Shown: in pieces, positions 8,072-39,276 of the stretch
Layout: every line of letters begins with the position of its first letter
How positions within the stretch are numbered: the stretch's first letter is position 1
Assembly (NCBI RefSeq): GCF_054482595.1
Contig: NZ_CM137008.1
Length of the DNA stretch: 64,000 bases
Direction: 5' to 3' (one strand)
Made by a program: the position numbers and the translations under genes
The notes under the pieces: generated by a model
The model's database searches: none
The model's input: only the letters and a program-made list of their open reading frames with translations
Told to the model about the DNA's origin: nothing

Positions 8072-8263
8072 TTAAAATCCTGCCGGGATTTCGTTATTAT
8101 CCTGGTGAATAACTTTATCGACCGGATAACAGTTGCCTGGAATTTTCTGTTCGGTTGCTGCTGCCATACATTCCTGCTTTGTTCTGTGAACACTGACTGC
8201 AATATCAACTGGCTCTCCGGAAACAAGAAAAACCGTCAGAATAAGTGCAAATACTGGATTCAT
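8072..8263 (-). CDS. ydfD: Small secreted/membrane protein, YdfD-like
   Basis: 63 aa MNPVFALILTVFLVSGEPV... with N-terminal hydrophobic segment; start overlaps dicB stop (ATGA). Confidence 0.5.
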   Translation of the reverse strand: MNPVFALILTVFLVSGEPVDIAVSVHRTKQECMAAATEQKIPGNCYPVDKVIHQDNNEIPAGF

Positions 8264-8448
8264 TGTGCACATCCTTTTGGCATCATACGTAAACGGGCCA
8301 GCATTGAAACAATGCATACTTTATTTAATAACTCCCGTTCGTGTTTTCTTTTGTTAATGGCATCTTCAGTAAATACAGGATTACTGATAGTGACACCAAT
8401 TTCAAAACAACCTTCAGACGTATTAACGTTTGGTAATAACGTTTTCAT
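8260..8448 (-). CDS. dicB: Cell division inhibitor DicB
   Basis: 62 aa MKTLLPNVNTSEGCFEIGVTISNPVFTEDAINKRKHERELLNKVCIVSMLARLRMMPKGCAQ, matching my recollection of Qin DicB. Confidence 0.75.
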   Translation of the reverse strand: MKTLLPNVNTSEGCFEIGVTISNPVFTEDAINKRKHERELLNKVCIVSMLARLRMMPKGCAQ

Positions 8449-8617
8449 TATCGCGCCCTCAACAATGAGTTTTGTGATGCGGTGCCTGGTGCCTCCAGGT
8501 GACGTTAACCAGTTAACAATTAACGCCGGATACAGAGAATCCACCCATAACACTGTTTTTGGTTTTAACTGTTCCGCGTGCGCTTAGCCGCATTCACCGC
8601 ATCACAAAATTCACTTT

Positions 8618-8675
8618 AAAAAGGGCGGCAGAGCAGTCACGGAGTAAAACTGATACCGCCAAACGTCACCAGAAA
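8618..8675 (-). ncRNA. dicF: DicF small RNA (ftsZ-targeting sRNA of the dicB operon)
   Basis: Minus strand reads TTTCTGGTGACGTTTGGCGGTATCAGTTTTACTCCGTGACTGCTCTGCCGCCCTTTTT, matching remembered DicF with terminal hairpin and U-run. Confidence 0.7.
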
Positions 8676-9015
8676 ATTGATAACAGAGGGCGTTGCAGCG
8701 GGGTTGTCACTTAAGCGTATGGTCAACCTGACAACCCGGTGTCCTCAACGGGGAAGGAATAACCCCGCCATACTTACCGCCGCGCCATTTCGCGGAGTGC
8801 CACAACCGGAAGCGCACGGTCGACGAAAATTTAACGACAGGCTATCTATGAACCAGCTACCTCGCCGTGCGCTTTCGCGTTATGGTCTGACTTTTCAGGG
8901 AAATATCCTTTCAGTAAACTGTCAGTGCCGGATGCTCACCCGTGTCCGGCGCACGCACTCCACCTCACCCGTGGAGAACTCCTTAATTACCAACCTTAGC
9001 TTCGTTGGTTAGCTA

Positions 9016-9234
9016 TTAACGCGGGTATGTAATCATTCTGGCAATGCTTAATGCCGCTGCTTTTTCCAGATTGGTGATATCCTGCTCCAGAGCGGACAGA
9101 TTTTCAGCCTGCTTAGCCCTGGCTTCATTAGCCCATTTCAGATCCTGCGCTGCATTAATTTTCTGGCGCATCCACTCATAAAGTTCATCATCGGTATAGT
9201 CTGGCGCGATTATGACGGGTTCTCGTTTCTGCAT
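9016..9234 (-). CDS. ydfC: Small early-operon protein, YdfC-like
   Basis: 72 aa from MQKREPVIIAPDYTDDELYEWMRQ...; position upstream of dicF as in Qin. Confidence 0.5.
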   Translation of the reverse strand: MQKREPVIIAPDYTDDELYEWMRQKINAAQDLKWANEARAKQAENLSALEQDITNLEKAAALSIARMITYPR

Positions 9235-9326
9235 GTCAGCTCCTTGTGGTTCGCATTGCCTGCTTTTAACCACGTCAGGCGAGGTGGTATCCTCTGAGGG
9301 GTCTGTTACTCGAGAGGAAATTGGTT

Positions 9327-9527
9327 ATGAATACAATCAAGTTTTCTTGCCCAGAATGTGGTGGCGAAGTCTTTGACACATCCTTTAAGCCGCAGGGCTC
9401 TGACAGTTTCGCGGGAGCCATCTGCAAAAATTGTGGTCACCTTGTAACTGAAGATGAGTCCTCGCAGTTCGATGACGAAATCGTTGACAATATCTTCGGT
9501 GCACTCACCAGAGACTTTCTGAAATAA
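9327..9527 (+). CDS. Small zinc-ribbon protein (CxxC...CxxC)
   Basis: MNTIKFSCPECGGEVFDTSFKPQGSDSFAGAICKNCGHLV...; SD-like gagaggaaa ~7 nt upstream; antisense to leftward early operon and overlaps minus-strand ORF 9306..9662, so only one is likely real. Confidence 0.4.
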   Translation: MNTIKFSCPECGGEVFDTSFKPQGSDSFAGAICKNCGHLVTEDESSQFDDEIVDNIFGALTRDFLK

Positions 9528-9851
9528 AGACGCATACCGCTTAGTTACCGCTCTGATAACTCTTACCTGTCCGGCAATGGCGCTGATGTCAATATAAAGC
9601 GCCATTGCTGCTTCTTTGCCGATCCCGTGATGCCTTCCATTCTGATGTTTGACTTCGCCCACTGAGAAATCCTCTGTTTCCCCTTAACGCCGGGGTAGCG
9701 GAACAAAAACCTGCTGCATAGTTATTAAAGTTGGACCCTGCCGTCATGTTCTTACGCCTCGGGCTGGCTACTTAACCCCTGACCACTGCCTGGTAACTCG
9801 AAGTATTGCCCTGCATTCTGTGGGGCGGGGTGGGTTGGTATGAAAAGAAGG

Positions 9852-9889
9852 ATACCCATAGGTATTTAAAAAGTAAATACCCATGGGTA
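9852..9889. promoter_or_regulatory. Candidate OL operator pair (palindromic TACCCAyrGGTA sites) and leftward early promoter region
   Basis: atacccataggtat (9852-9865) and tacccatgggta (9878-9889); related to acctgtgggtat sites between repressor and cro. Confidence 0.45.
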
Positions 9890-9931
9890 ACTTTTTGCGG
9901 TGTCTTAACTGGTGACTAGTTGTTTGGTGAG

Positions 9932-10351
9932 CTATGATGCGTTTTGTGCTTTCTTTTTACGGATTTCTTCGTAGATCATATTGTAATACTGTTTTTTCTC
10001 TTCAAGAGTTTTTAATAAGTTATCCGCTTCACTTTCTGGCAGTTCGTCTAAGAGATCTAAAAAAATACGTTGTCGTGGCGTTAGAACCCTTGTTTCATAA
10101 CTGGAGGCTGTGTTCGTTGATGATGAAACGATACCATCCATCCATCCCCGGGGTAACCCAAAGGACTCTTCGATAATCTCCACCATATCATCAGCGATCC
10201 GTTTTTTTCCCTTTTTCCCCTCTGGGTACAACATTCTTGATACATAAGAAGGCTCGCGCCCGATCTTTCTGGCCACGTTAACCGCTTTACCATCGCATTT
10301 CTCATCACGAATTTTGATGAGTTGCTGTCGTCTAAATTCATATTTGTCCAT
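9932..10351 (-). CDS. Prophage repressor (CI-like, HTH)
   Basis: 139 aa with HTH-like GKAVNVARKIGREPSYVSRM; divergent from cro-like gene; flanked by operator-like repeats. Confidence 0.65.
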   Translation of the reverse strand: MDKYEFRRQQLIKIRDEKCDGKAVNVARKIGREPSYVSRMLYPEGKKGKKRIADDMVEIIEESFGLPRGWMDGIVSSSTNTASSYETRVLTPRQRIFLDLLDELPESEADNLLKTLEEKKQYYNMIYEEIRKKKAQNAS

Positions 10352-10387
10352 AGGTAAATAATAGATGCGATTACCGCAAGGTAAACA

Positions 10388-10423
10388 ACCTGTGGGTATT
10401 GACTTTTGTTTACCTGTGGGTAT
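10388..10423. promoter_or_regulatory. Candidate OR operators: two direct copies of ACCTGTGGGTAT in the repressor/cro divergent region
   Basis: Copies at 10388-10399 and 10412-10423. Confidence 0.5.
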
Positions 10424-10451
10424 TCTTTACTGTGTTTACTAAGGAGTAGCT

Positions 10452-10733
10452 ATGGAAGAATTAAGAATATTTCTCAATTCTCTTTCGTCAGATGAACAGC
10501 GTATGTTTGCATGCGAGTGTGGTACCAGCATCGGTTATCTAAGAAAGGCATTGAGTAAAGGTCAAGTGTTAGGGGCATCGTTATGCGTCCTTATTGAGCG
10601 AGCCAGTAATGGTGAAGTTACACGTCAGCAACTAAGGCCTTTTGATTGGATGAATATTTGGCCCGAGCTGGAAGATACCAAAACGTTAACACAACCACTT
10701 TCTAGGAGCTTGATTCATGAAAATCAAGCATGA
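10452..10733 (+). CDS. Cro/YdaS-like HTH regulator
   Basis: 93 aa; AGGAG SD; first gene of rightward operon; helix-turn-helix-like CGTSIGYLRKALSKG. Confidence 0.6.
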   Translation: MEELRIFLNSLSSDEQRMFACECGTSIGYLRKALSKGQVLGASLCVLIERASNGEVTRQQLRPFDWMNIWPELEDTKTLTQPLSRSLIHENQA

Positions 10734-11142
10734 ACACATCCGCATGGCGATGAATGCCTGGGCGCATCCGGACGGTGAAAAAGTTCCGGCAGCTGAAATA
10801 ACCAGGGCTTATTTTGAACTGGGTATGACGTTCCCAGAACTGTATGACGACAGCCATCCGGAAGCCCTGGCTCGCAATACCCAGAAAATTTTCCGCTGGG
10901 TAGAGAAAGACACCCCTGATGCAGTTGAAAAAATTCAGGCGTTGTTACCAGCGATCGAAAAGGCAATGCCACCTTTGCTGGTGGCCAGAATGCGCAGCCA
11001 CAGTTCAGCTTATTTTCGGGAGCTGGTGGAGACGCGGGAGCGACTGGTGAGAGACGCTGATGATTTTGTCGCAGTGGCAATCGCCGGTTTCAATCAGATG
11101 AACCGTGGTGGCCCGGCAGGAAATGCTGTGGCAGTACATTGA
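10717..11142 (+). CDS. YdaT/CII-like early protein
   Basis: 141 aa, starts MKIKHEHIRMAMNAWAHPDGEK; follows cro-like gene as ydaS-ydaT in Rac-type prophages. Confidence 0.45.
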   Translation: MKIKHEHIRMAMNAWAHPDGEKVPAAEITRAYFELGMTFPELYDDSHPEALARNTQKIFRWVEKDTPDAVEKIQALLPAIEKAMPPLLVARMRSHSSAYFRELVETRERLVRDADDFVAVAIAGFNQMNRGGPAGNAVAVH

Positions 11143-11213
11143 CTGACAATAGCCATATCGAATCGCTTCCGGCAACTCGTGAGTAAAAAGATTCGGTATC
11201 AGAAGAGGTGAGT

Positions 11214-12308
11214 ATGGCTAACGCCTGGCTCAGATTATGGCATGACATGCCAAATGACCCTAAGTGGCGAACAATTGCCAGGGTGTCAGGGCAGCCAATT
11301 GCAACAGTGATGGCAGTGTATATCCACCTCCTGGTGAGCGCGTCACGAAATGTCACGCGAGGTCACATTGATGTCACGACAGAAGATTTGGCAAGTGCGC
11401 TCGACGTGACAGAAGAGGTAATTGATTCAATTTTGCAGACGATGCAGGGGCGGGTACTTGATGGTGATTTAATCACTGGATGGGAAAAACGCCAGGTGCT
11501 TAAAGAGGACAACGGCAATATTTCGCAAACCGCAAAATCTCCTGCAGAGCGCAAGAGGGCGCAGCGAGAGAGGGAAAGAAAGCGGGAACAAAATGGCGAT
11601 TGTCACGGCGCGTCACGAAATGTCACGCACATGTCACGACGAGTCACGACAGATAAAGATACAGATAAAGATACAGATCAAGAAGATCAAAACACTATGG
11701 TCCATGGCGTAAAAAACGCCACGAACCAGGCAGGGGATGTTCAGACCGTCAATCTTGGTCAGCCAGCAGGCACGACACCGGAAGCCGATTCAGCGTATGC
11801 GCTGAAAGCCGATTCGGGCGCTGTGCAGCAGGTGATGACCGCAAGGCTGGAGCAATCACACCAACTGCAGCAGCCCGAAGCCGATTCCGCCATTCAGCGG
11901 GAAGCCGATTCCGCCATTCAGCGGGAAGCCGATCGGGTAGTCCCGGAAAACACCGGGCAGTCTGTGGGACGAGTGGATTATCCGGATGTGTTCGAACAGG
12001 TCTGGCGGGAGTACCCGTTGCGTGCCGGAGCAAACCCGAAGAAATCCGCTTTCAGTGCCTGGAAGGCCAGATTACGCGAGGGGGTGCCACCAGAGGCCAT
12101 GCTGGATGGCGTGAGGCGTTACGCAAGATACTTGGCGGCTACCGGGAAAACGGGAACGGAATTTGTTCAGCGAGCGACGACGTTTTTTGGACCGGACCGG
12201 AATTTTGAGAACCCCTGGTTGCTCCCGGTAAGCGGCACGAACAACCAGCGTTGTGTGAATCATATTTCTGAACCGGATAACGAAATTCCGCCGGGCTTCA
12301 GGGGGTAA
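11214..12308 (+). CDS. Putative replication initiation protein (O-like) with internal repeats
   Basis: ATG 11214 after SD agaagagg; contains two GTCACG iteron-like clusters and coding tandem repeats (DKDTDKDTD, EADSAIQR x2). Confidence 0.55.
   Translation: MANAWLRLWHDMPNDPKWRTIARVSGQPIATVMAVYIHLLVSASRNVTRGHIDVTTEDLASALDVTEEVIDSILQTMQGRVLDGDLITGWEKRQVLKEDNGNISQTAKSPAERKRAQRERERKREQNGDCHGASRNVTHMSRRVTTDKDTDKDTDQEDQNTMVHGVKNATNQAGDVQTVNLGQPAGTTPEADSAYALKADSGAVQQVMTARLEQSHQLQQPEADSAIQREADSAIQREADRVVPENTGQSVGRVDYPDVFEQVWREYPLRAGANPKKSAFSAWKARLREGVPPEAMLDGVRRYARYLAATGKTGTEFVQRATTFFGPDRNFENPWLLPVSGTNNQRCVNHISEPDNEIPPGFRG
11342..11380. repeat. Iteron-like cluster 1: four GTCAC(G/A) at ~10-11 bp spacing
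   Basis: GTCAC at 11342, 11352, 11362, 11373 inside the replication gene. Confidence 0.5.
11602..11650. repeat. Iteron-like cluster 2: five GTCACG at ~10-11 bp spacing
   Basis: GTCACG at 11602, 11612, 11622, 11633, 11643; cgtcacgaaatgtcacgc shared with cluster 1. Confidence 0.5.
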
Positions 12309-14376: not shown

Positions 14377-14589
14377 ATGAACGGCAAATCTAGGTTAGCC
14401 TCTTACGTGCCGAAAGGCAAGGAGAAGCAGGCTATGAAGCAGCAAAAGGCGATGTTAATCGCCCTGATCGTCATCTGTTTAACCGTCATTGTGACGGCAC
14501 TGGTAACGAGGAAAGACCTCTGCGAGGTACGAATCCGAACCGGCCAGACGGAGGTCGCTGTCTTCACAGCTTACGAACCTGAGGAGTAA
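14377..14589 (+). CDS. mok: Mok-like leader ORF, in-frame N-terminal extension of hok
   Basis: 70-aa ORF MNGKSRLASYVPKGKEKQA... continuing into the Hok reading frame. Confidence 0.45.
   Translation: MNGKSRLASYVPKGKEKQAMKQQKAMLIALIVICLTVIVTALVTRKDLCEVRIRTGQTEVAVFTAYEPEE
14434..14589 (+). CDS. hok: Hok/Gef-family type I toxin
   Basis: 51 aa MKQQKAMLIALIVICLTVIVTALVTRKDLCEVRIRTGQTEVAVFTAYEPEE; complementary mRNA end elements at 14263-14276 and 14639-14653. Confidence 0.8.
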   Translation: MKQQKAMLIALIVICLTVIVTALVTRKDLCEVRIRTGQTEVAVFTAYEPEE

Positions 14590-38100: not shown

Positions 38101-38607
38101 AGTGGCAGTGTGAATGCGAACGCCGGGGCGCTCAACAACGTCACGATTAATGAGAGCTGTACTATTAAGGGGATGCTTGATGCTAACCAGGTGCGTGGTG
38201 ATTTTGTAAAAACGACAGGGCATCGATTTCCGCACCCCGGAGAATACCCACAGGGTTCACTTACCGTTCATATTAAGGACGATCATGCCTTTGACAGGCA
38301 GATTATAATTCAACCAATCATGTACGGTGCACCACCATATTTTAGTAAAAATGATGGCGCTAATATCTACGATACCTGCAGATTAATTGTGCGCAAAAAT
38401 GGCAATGTAATCTATGACAAATCCACTAGTGGTTCGAAAAGGACAACAGTCGTGTACAGCAATATCATTGATATGCCAGTGGGGGACGGAGATGTAATAT
38501 TAACATTTGAAGTTCAGTCGAGCGGCAGTGGAGATCCCAGAACATGGATCAGTGATTTAATGGTCTCGGTAACGAAAAAAGCCGCATCCGGTATCAGTAT
38601 CAGTTGA
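35131..38607 (+). CDS. Host specificity / central tail fibre protein J
   Basis: 1158 aa; position after I; lambda J-like N-terminal and central regions. Confidence 0.85.
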
Positions 38608-38627
38608 AATTTTTATAACCCCAATAC

Positions 38628-38653
38628 GGGCGCCAGAAATGGCGCCTTTTTTA
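38628..38653 (+). terminator. Rho-independent terminator after J
   Basis: gggcgccagaaatggcgcc followed by ttttttatt. Confidence 0.7.
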
Positions 38654-38676
38654 TTGCAGAAAAGCGAGAGGTAATT

Positions 38677-39276
38677 ATGCGTAAAGTTTGTGCAGCCATT
38701 TTTTCCGCAGCCATCTGTCTGGCCGTATCCGGTGCGCCTGCATGGGCGTCTGAACATCAGTCCACACTGAGCGCAGGGTATCTTCATGCCCGTACGAACG
38801 CACCCGGCAGCGATAATCTGAACGGGATTAACGTGAAATACCGTTATGAGTTTACGGACACACTGGGGCTGGTGACGTCATTCAGCTATGCAGGAGACAA
38901 GAATCGCCAGCTTACCCGTTACAGCGATACCCGCTGGCATGAAGATTCAGTGCGTAACCGCTGGTTCAGCGTGATGGCGGGGCCCTCTGTGCGCGTGAAT
39001 GAATGGTTCAGTGCGTATGCGATGGCGGGCGTGGCTTACAGCCGTGTGTCGACTTTTTCCGGGGATTATCTGCAGGTGACCGACAGCAAGGGGAAAACGC
39101 ACGATGTGCTGACCGGCAGTGATGACGGTCGCCACAGCAACACGTCTCTGGCGTGGGGGGCTGGCGTGCAGTTTAACCCGACCGAATCCGTGGCCATTGA
39201 TATTGCTTATGAAGGCTCCGGCAGTGGCGACTGGCGCACTGACGGTTTCATCGTGGGCGTCGGTTATAAGTTCTGA
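38677..39276 (+). CDS. lom: Lom-like outer membrane beta-barrel protein (Ail/Lom family)
   Basis: 199 aa with signal peptide and C-terminal ...GVGYKF. Confidence 0.8.

Follow-up and report, generated by a model that had tools for sequence, protein, structure and literature searches.

A short repressor gene, divergent from a cro-like gene, is flanked on both sides by copies of related motifs, and the question raised by this locus is whether these copies are operators through which a single repressor controls both early promoters. The window referred to below is the whole stretch of DNA that was analysed, 64,000 nucleotides in length. The initial annotation had pointed to two palindromic sites just beyond the 3′ end of the repressor gene, likened to OL, and to two direct copies between repressor and cro, likened to OR, and had proposed that one repressor specificity acts at both. 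Our reading, the best explanation of the locus as a whole, is that a lambdoid E. coli prophage resembling Qin very probably has its immunity cassette at positions 9836-10704, in which the repressor would act on five operators. The segment and the neighbouring genes are the following.

9836-10704, no strand: immunity-specific cassette of 869 bp, comprising OL, PL, the repressor gene, OR, PR, PRM and most of cro
9932-10351, minus strand: repressor gene, 139 aa; PHROG 5736 (phrog_5736, 'transcriptional regulator') over the full length, E 4e-70
10452-10733, plus strand: Cro-like gene, 93 aa, with a YdaS-like helix-turn-helix; phrog_35, and Pfam YdaS at E 9e-6, below the curated cut-off
10717-11142, plus strand: CII-like gene of the YdaT family, next in the PR operon and outside the immunity cassette
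11208-12308, plus strand: replication initiator, by PHROG match
9016-9234, minus strand: ydfC, with which the recognisable genes of the PL operon begin; RefSeq at the identical E. coli locus, phrog_1744
8623-8674, minus strand: DicF small RNA, which inhibits ftsZ translation; Rfam RF00039 at 76.7 bits (gathering score 48)
8260-8448, minus strand: dicB, a cell-division inhibitor in the PL operon; Pfam DicB at E 7.9e-39 and RefSeq annotation

The repressor and cro genes are separated by 100 bp, and the Cro-like protein shares 73% identity with Cro of phage mEp043.

Probable operator sites and early promoters

The motif counts were obtained over the 64-kb window. With ATACCCAYRGGT and at most one mismatch, seven matches were found against 0.63 expected, and none of 100 shuffles reached seven; six of the seven correspond to the four sites of the initial annotation, both palindromic sites being counted on two strands. 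The exact pattern TACC-N4-GGTA is matched four times in 64 kb against 0.33 expected, and all four matches fall within the operator region. An unbiased repeat finder returned a 13-nt exact direct repeat on the right with 24-bp spacing, a 13-nt repeat on the left with 25-bp spacing, and inverted repeats of 20-24 nt that link the left and right blocks, which makes the PL and PR promoter-operator blocks mirror images of each other.

The four sites first described were recovered as ATACCCATAGGT at 9852-9863 (plus strand), ATACCCATGGGT at 9877-9888 (plus strand) and ACCTGTGGGTAT at both 10388-10399 and 10412-10423, and the left and right motifs are related by reverse complementarity, as had been suggested, ACCTGTGGGTAT being the reverse complement of ATACCCACAGGT. 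Two corrections are needed. Both left sites are present, but only the core at 9878-9889 is a perfect palindrome (12/12 self-complementary positions), while that at 9853-9864 reaches 10/12; the corresponding values for OR1 and OR2 are 8/12 and 6/12. Likewise, both OR copies were found, but OR contains three sites, and the one at 10371-10384 (TTACCGCAAGGTAA), itself among the four exact TACC-N4-GGTA matches, had been overlooked. Altogether five 14-bp sites of the form WTACC-N4-GGTAW lie around the repressor gene; the scores given with them are those of the weight matrix described in the next section.

9852-9865, no strand: OL1, ATACCCATAGGTAT, an exact motif match; weight-matrix score 19.7, third in the window
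9877-9890, no strand: OL2, ATACCCATGGGTAA, with a perfectly palindromic core; weight-matrix score 19.8
10371-10384, no strand: OR3, TTACCGCAAGGTAA; weight-matrix score 11.2, weak alone
10386-10399, no strand: OR2, CAACCTGTGGGTAT; weight-matrix score 12.1
10410-10423, no strand: OR1, TTACCTGTGGGTAT; weight-matrix score 19.9, top of the window

From centre to centre, OR1 and OR2 are 24 bp apart, OR2 and OR3 15 bp, and OL1 and OL2 25 bp. The left sites start 41 bp past the repressor stop codon.

Promoters were sought by a scan for the sigma-70 consensus over 9500-10600 with a threshold of 9 out of 12 positions. The scan returned two promoters, PR and a PRM-like one. A third, PL-like promoter was read from the sequence; it matches the consensus at 8/12 positions and is missing from the scan list because it falls under the threshold.

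10399-10426, plus strand: PR, with TTGACT (10399-10404), a 16-nt spacer and TATTCT (10421-10426); from the promoter scan
10358-10385, minus strand: PRM-like promoter, with TTTACC (10385-10380), a 16-nt spacer and TATTAT (10363-10358); from the promoter scan
9849-9877, minus strand: PL-like promoter, with TTTACT (9877-9872), a 17-nt spacer and TATCCT (9854-9849); read from the sequence

Transcription from PR is expected to start near 10433 and that from the PL-like promoter near 9842 on the minus strand, the operon downstream of the latter being ydfC-dicF-dicB. The operators and the promoter hexamers overlap. At the right, OR1 covers the PR spacer and the first bases of its −10 hexamer, OR2 abuts the −35 hexamer of PR, and OR3 lies within the −35 hexamer and spacer of PRM. 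At the left, the operator pair overlaps TTTACT-17-TATCCT, itself a weak match to the consensus; OL1 overlaps the PL spacer together with the start of the −10 hexamer, and the last base of OL2 is the first base of the −35 hexamer. PL and PR stand in the same register with respect to their two sites: at both promoters, the −35 hexamer begins with the T that ends the distal site, and the −10 hexamer begins with the TAT that closes the proximal site. The PRM −10 hexamer lies only 6 nt ahead of the repressor ATG, so the repressor mRNA would be nearly leaderless. The cI mRNA made from PRM of phage lambda is also leaderless or nearly so.

For repressor binding and its cooperativity, for the activation of PRM and for the way in which induction occurs, we infer the following scheme. 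A dimer of the 139-aa repressor would bind the 14-bp pseudo-palindromic operators WTACC-N4-GGTAW. Bound to the strong OR1 and the weaker OR2, it would cover the spacer, the −10 hexamer and the edge of the −35 hexamer of PR and keep cro and cII off; bound to OL1 and OL2, both of them strong sites, it would cover the −10 and −35 hexamers of PL and keep ydfC-dicF-dicB silent. By analogy with lambda, repressor at OR2 may stimulate PRM, since the centre of OR2 lies ~41.5 bp upstream of where PRM transcription is predicted to start. OR3, a weak site in the −35 hexamer and spacer of PRM, could provide negative autoregulation or allow Cro to shut off the repressor gene, and the Cro-like protein presumably acts at the same operators. 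In Qin, DicA represses dicBp and dicCp via operators at equivalent positions (PMC10448788). The release of the repressor is taken up with the protein itself below.

The motif among relatives and in a heteroimmune phage

A database search that used the repressor's N-terminal domain gave 70 relatives, mostly of 131-150 aa. The comparison set of 12 consists of the contigs of ten relatives together with phages mEp043 and CharmingMan, and the relative loci come from E. coli, Salmonella, Serratia, Yersinia and Chromobacterium hosts as well as from metagenomes. The DNA-binding domains of these 12 relatives are 54-89% identical, and three OR sites of the TACC-N4-GGTA type are present in all of them. 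In ten relatives, as in the window, the upstream distance from the repressor ATG to the start of the site is 71-74 nt for OR1 and 32-34 nt for OR3; CharmingMan (L084), for which a different start codon is annotated, and L093, itself near-identical to the window, are not among these ten. The relatives keep the operator arms and the PRM −35 hexamer TTTACC but differ in the central 4 bp and in the spacers. In the six loci that have a left operon close by, hexamers again follow an OL pair, and the register is unchanged; the same −35/−10 register at the left promoter was seen in L085, L086, L089, L084 (CharmingMan) and L002.

A weight matrix was built from 43 operator sites of the relatives only, with the window excluded. 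OR1, OL2 and OL1 are the top three of ~64,000 window positions, at 19.7-19.9 bits, against a mean best score of 13.5 in shuffles. OR2 (12.1) and OR3 (11.2) are no better than the best chance matches when taken singly, and their support comes from positional conservation and not from the matrix score. The OR sites of lambda have graded affinities, which the one strong and two weaker sites found here resemble. The weaker matrix matches at 38244-39079 were rejected as operators, as they lie within tail-protein and Lom-like coding sequence and have chance-level scores.

The contrast with phage Tritos (L003) separates the motif from the surrounding backbone. By blastn and alignment, Tritos and the window share 96-99% identity in both flanks, the left one running up to 9835 and the right one starting at 10705. 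Inside 9836-10704 the two are unrelated except for 76% identity over the part coding for the repressor tail, and all five operator sites lie inside this 869-bp segment in which the window differs from the heteroimmune phage. The DNA-binding domain of the Tritos repressor is of HTH_3 type and differs from that of the 139-aa repressor, its Cro shows no similarity to the Cro-like protein of the window, and in Tritos the places that correspond to OL and OR are taken by another repeated motif, AGTACAT/ATGTACT. As Tritos shares the flanks yet has the motif, the domain and Cro exchanged, the motif follows the DNA-binding domain and Cro and not the backbone. The segment 9836-10704 is an ordinary lambdoid (Qin/DicA-like) immunity region. 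Taken together, the promoter register, the 12 relatives, the weight matrix and the Tritos contrast agree with the proposal that a single repressor specificity would govern both early promoters, as far as can be judged from DNA and protein sequences.

A 671-bp immunity segment is 100% identical in many E. coli chromosomes, and 821 of 5426 complete E. coli genomes (~15%) contain at least 80% of its length. Among sequenced-phage records, near-identical DNA is limited to the flanks and the immunity cassette occurs in none. A scan of IMG/VR gave only copies of 99-100% identity, which are useless for covariation. The leader of PL (9680-9843) was considered as a structured put-like RNA and rejected, with no Rfam match and a fold no better than shuffles (z +1.2).

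The left sites admit of other readings. The pair (9853-9889) might have the added role of an intrinsic terminator of the repressor transcript on the minus-strand RNA, which would keep read-through from PRM out of the toxic dicF/dicB operon. In the terminator scan the stem has 16 pairs and the loop 5 nt, with TCCTTCTTTT after the stem, and the hairpin on the minus-strand RNA, followed by UCCUUCUUUU, comes to −24.1 kcal/mol with a z-score of −4.9; there is no other terminator-like hairpin between the repressor stop codon (9932) and PL, and PRM transcripts must be stopped somewhere ahead of the PL operon. Nevertheless, such a hairpin needs no separate selection, since tandem near-palindromes of one sequence pair automatically, and its stem has just 5 G-C pairs. 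Close relatives lack the T-run (the sequence is TCCTACATTCC in L085 and CACTAGCCAC in L086), the same motif stands at OR, where a terminator is not expected, and in mEp043 and CharmingMan the OL pair is preceded by a distinct G+C-rich terminator. We therefore consider the added role unlikely; termination as the sole function of the pair is very unlikely, given that the T-run is not conserved and that the motif is also present at OR.

It is quite improbable that the left sites are relics, or auxiliary sites looping to OR, with the dicB operon driven from elsewhere. The hexamer register at the left sites is common to the window, L085, L086, L089, L084 and L002 and matches that of PR, and the leader downstream of PL is conserved across immunity types; these observations outweigh, in our view, the 8/12 match of PL, its absence from the scan list and an OL to OR distance of ~500-560 bp that is compatible with looping. 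As for the motif itself, chance is excluded by the motif counts and the independent weight matrix. Binding by a protein other than the 139-aa product, whether Cro alone or a host factor, might be entertained in view of the label of hypothetical protein that RefSeq gives to this product at the identical E. coli locus, but the motif goes with the DNA-binding domain of the repressor in different hosts and with either of two C-terminal domains, it is replaced where this domain is replaced (Tritos), and the domain is 65% identical to that of the annotated mEp043 cI. Chance or another binding protein is accordingly an extremely improbable explanation. The preferred reading remains that of operators for the 139-aa repressor at PL, PR and PRM.

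The repressor and its possible route of induction

By sequence, the repressor is a hybrid of a probable N-terminal helix-turn-helix domain of mEp043 CI type and a DicA-like C-terminal tail. Residues 1-86 share 65% identity with the N-terminal part of mEp043 CI. Residues 89-134 are 33% identical to the tail of K-12 DicA over 46 aa (E 1e-7), and the BLASTP similarity to DicA is confined to this tail. The NCBIfam DicA model NF007257 matches residues 86-136 only, with 23.9 bits against a curated cut-off of 101; such a partial match below the cut-off means that the 139-aa repressor is not a member of the DicA family. The sequence matches no Pfam family, hence no Pfam helix-turn-helix and no S24 peptidase domain, and there is no Ala-Gly dipeptide anywhere in its 139 aa. 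The lack of both the S24 domain and Ala-Gly makes RecA-stimulated self-cleavage unlikely. The lambda-like reading of the locus is to be refined in this respect: the layout holds, but the repressor is probably a short, non-cleavable, DicA-like protein and not a lambda-type CI, and the left promoter would lead to dicF/dicB and not to N.

The AlphaFold model of the repressor, computed with a 35-sequence alignment, has a mean pLDDT of 83. Four helices are predicted in the N-terminal part, of which those at 23-30 and 34-41 probably form a helix-turn-helix (23-41), followed by a disordered linker at 77-86 and by two C-terminal helices, 92-102 and a long one at 106-138. The best PDB match by Foldseek was the antirepressor-controlled Rep of Salmonella phage SPC32H (5d50), with a weak E-value of 2.9e-3 and a TM-score of 0.47. 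Foldseek also aligned XRE-type helix-turn-helix proteins (controller proteins, SinR) over ~70 residues with 2.7-3.1 Å rmsd, again with weak E-values of at least 0.003. A sequence search of the PDB with the repressor gave chance-level matches only, for example ADAR Z-alpha at E 0.08. The putative recognition helix is SYVSRMLYPEGK, and among 35 homologues the segment SYVSRMLYPEGK-GKKRIADD varies little or not at all, which fits the conserved operator arms. With 139 aa, no cleavage motif and a DicA-like C-terminal helix, the repressor fits the short DicA/Gifsy-like class (~135-150 aa).

Release by an antirepressor, as for DicA with Rem and for the Gifsy repressors, would be more likely than RecA-stimulated self-cleavage, given a repressor that has neither an S24 domain nor an Ala-Gly dipeptide. 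Too short for self-cleavage, DicA is reported to be released by the antirepressor Rem, which derepressed dicBp 165-fold (PMC10448788). The Gifsy repressors GfoR and GtgR are short and non-cleavable, and their antirepressors are LexA-controlled (PMC3121763). Neither a Rem homologue nor an exact LexA box (CTGT-N8-ACAG) was found in the window, and a relaxed search gave no good box there. No DinI homologue was found in the window with an approximate query sequence, and no antirepressor PHROG was assigned to any of the 10 proteins whose genes lie between the replication gene and Q. The inducer may act in trans from elsewhere in the host genome.

The same DNA-binding module is attached to an S24 domain in mEp043 and CharmingMan, and to non-cleavable tails in the prophage of the window and in most relatives. 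It is possible, though somewhat less likely than not, that one specificity, made up of the DNA-binding domain, Cro and the TACC-N4-GGTA operators, has been joined in nature to two different induction modules. The modularity as such, one DNA-binding domain, Cro and operator set with differing tails, is a mildly interesting point.

Comparison with known switches and significance

The architecture is that of a classical lambdoid switch in its Qin/DicA-like form, and the understanding of lambdoid switches is unchanged by it. With lambda it has in common the divergent repressor and cro genes, the tripartite OR on PR and PRM, sites of the same motif on the leftward early promoter, a spacing of ~24-25 bp in the promoter-proximal pair, an OR2 near −42 of PRM and a nearly leaderless repressor mRNA. 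It differs from lambda in that two OL sites are recognisable here and three in lambda, that the operators are 14 bp and not 17 bp long, and that OR2 and OR3 are adjacent, 15 bp from centre to centre. The repressor has no S24 domain, and PL leads to ydfC-dicF-dicB, there being no N gene.

Qin of E. coli K-12, whose gene order is dicC, dicA, ydfABC, dicF, dicB, shows the same succession of cro-like gene, short repressor, promoter with operators, ydfC, dicF and dicB. The left operon is 96% identical, and the repressor of the window is, like DicA, short and without Ala-Gly, with a tail homologous to that of DicA. In contrast, the DNA-binding domain of DicA is unrelated, as DicA has an HTH_3 match whereas the repressor of the window matches no Pfam model; the operator repeat read by eye in the Qin sequence, TGTTAG(C/T)(T/C)A, and Cro differ too, and the window has a 442-bp insert (9235-9676) in place of ydfA and ydfB.

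For the operators, close counterparts are mEp043 and CharmingMan, which have the same TACC-N4-GGTA layout with three OR and two OL sites. In mEp043 these are TTACCTGTAGGTAA, ATACCCATAGGTTA and TTACCGGCAGGTAA at OR and TTACCTATAGGTAT and TTACCTGTAGGTAT at OL, and the putative recognition helix is identical. In contrast to the window, mEp043 encodes a CI of 228 aa with Peptidase_S24 (PF00717) and an Ala-Gly site and has an N gene to the left, CharmingMan encodes a CI of 222 aa with Peptidase_S24 (PF00717), and neither record shows the dicB operon. A literature search on the operator strings and on the mEp043 operators found no published description. GfoR and GtgR (PMC3121763) and the Rep-Ant pair of SPC32H (5d50) resemble the window in having a ~140-aa, presumably non-cleavable repressor, and SPC32H Rep is also the best structural match of the repressor model, albeit with a weak E-value. 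The Gifsy and SPC32H systems differ in that neither an antirepressor gene, a dinI homologue nor a LexA box was found in the window.

The value of these results lies in annotation: operators, promoters and boundaries can be assigned for an immunity type that ~15% of complete E. coli genomes carry and whose switch governs DicF and DicB, toxic regulators of cell division. The TACC-N4-GGTA layout moreover gives a recognition rule for a repressor family that is not covered by Pfam. The natural exchange between S24 and DicA-like tails offers a clean system for a change of induction signal under constant immunity. If one specificity is indeed joined to two induction modules, phages of both kinds would be cross-immune yet answer different inducing signals, and a resident prophage could block an SOS-inducible superinfecting relative without being SOS-inducible itself.

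Repressor family and further operator-like sites

The DNA-binding domain of the repressor family, which includes the CI proteins of the phages mEp043 and CharmingMan, is covered by no Pfam model. A basic loop, YPEGK-GKKRIADD, located after the putative recognition helix, is nearly invariant in the family, and pLDDT drops to 66 at this loop in the structure model of the repressor. The C-terminal tails of the homologues are of several types, unrelated to one another.

A half-site-like copy at 10344-10361 (CCATAGGTAAATAA; repeat D3 of the unbiased repeat search) shares 86% identity with the right half of the predicted left operator OL1, overlaps the start codon of the repressor gene and scores 9.5 with the weight matrix built from operators of relatives. 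This copy may be a very weak fourth site or have arisen by chance. Four weak matrix matches (9.2-10.7 bits) were also observed inside 835 bp at 38244-39079, within the 3′ end of the gene for a 1158-aa tail protein and the gene for a Lom-like outer-membrane protein; their scores are at chance level, yet the clustering is odd.

With respect to induction, the whole window was found to contain no exact LexA box, no homologue of DinI or of Rem, the antirepressor of DicA, and no annotated antirepressor. The prophage type is common in E. coli.

Replication gene and hok-like ORF

Two 46-nt segments of the replication-initiator gene, 11338-11383 and 11608-11653, each match the Tritos counterpart of the other with 85% identity, and this cross-matching suggests that they are internal repeats, possibly origin iterons. 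The initiator protein itself contains a tandem EADSAIQR repeat. Further downstream lies an ORF, at the position of which hokD is annotated in an identical E. coli locus:

14377-14589 (+), ORF with Hok-like toxin sequence (MKQQKAMLIALIVICLTVIVTALVTRKDLCEVRIRTGQTEVAVFTAYEPEE)

Leader and left operon

The leader directly downstream of the putative PL start, 9677-9835 (-), shares 98.7% identity with its counterpart in Tritos, a heteroimmune phage; the distal 28 nt of this leader are present in Qin too. An N gene is absent. The leader matches no Rfam family, and its fold is not better than those of shuffled sequences (z +1.2). The adjoining 442 bp (9235-9676) are missing from Qin and Tritos, which have ydfA and ydfB there, and hold two overlapping ORFs on opposite strands:

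9321-9527 (+), candidate ORF for an ECs_2282-family zinc-ribbon protein (RefSeq annotation)
9306-9662 (-), candidate ORF matching phrog_21318 (E 1e-65)

If the former is a real gene, its transcription would oppose PL.

The left operon that follows is 96% identical to that of K-12 Qin and likewise 96% identical to that of Tritos:

8260-9234 (-), left operon content: ydfC, DicF small RNA and dicB
8623-8674 (-), DicF small RNA (Rfam, 76.7 bits)
8260-8448 (-), dicB

An STnc100 match directly upstream of dicB (8471-8611) reaches 38.8 bits, below the gathering score of 47. Because the left operon carries ydfC, DicF and dicB, two cell-division inhibitors would be under the control of the immunity switch via the predicted operators.
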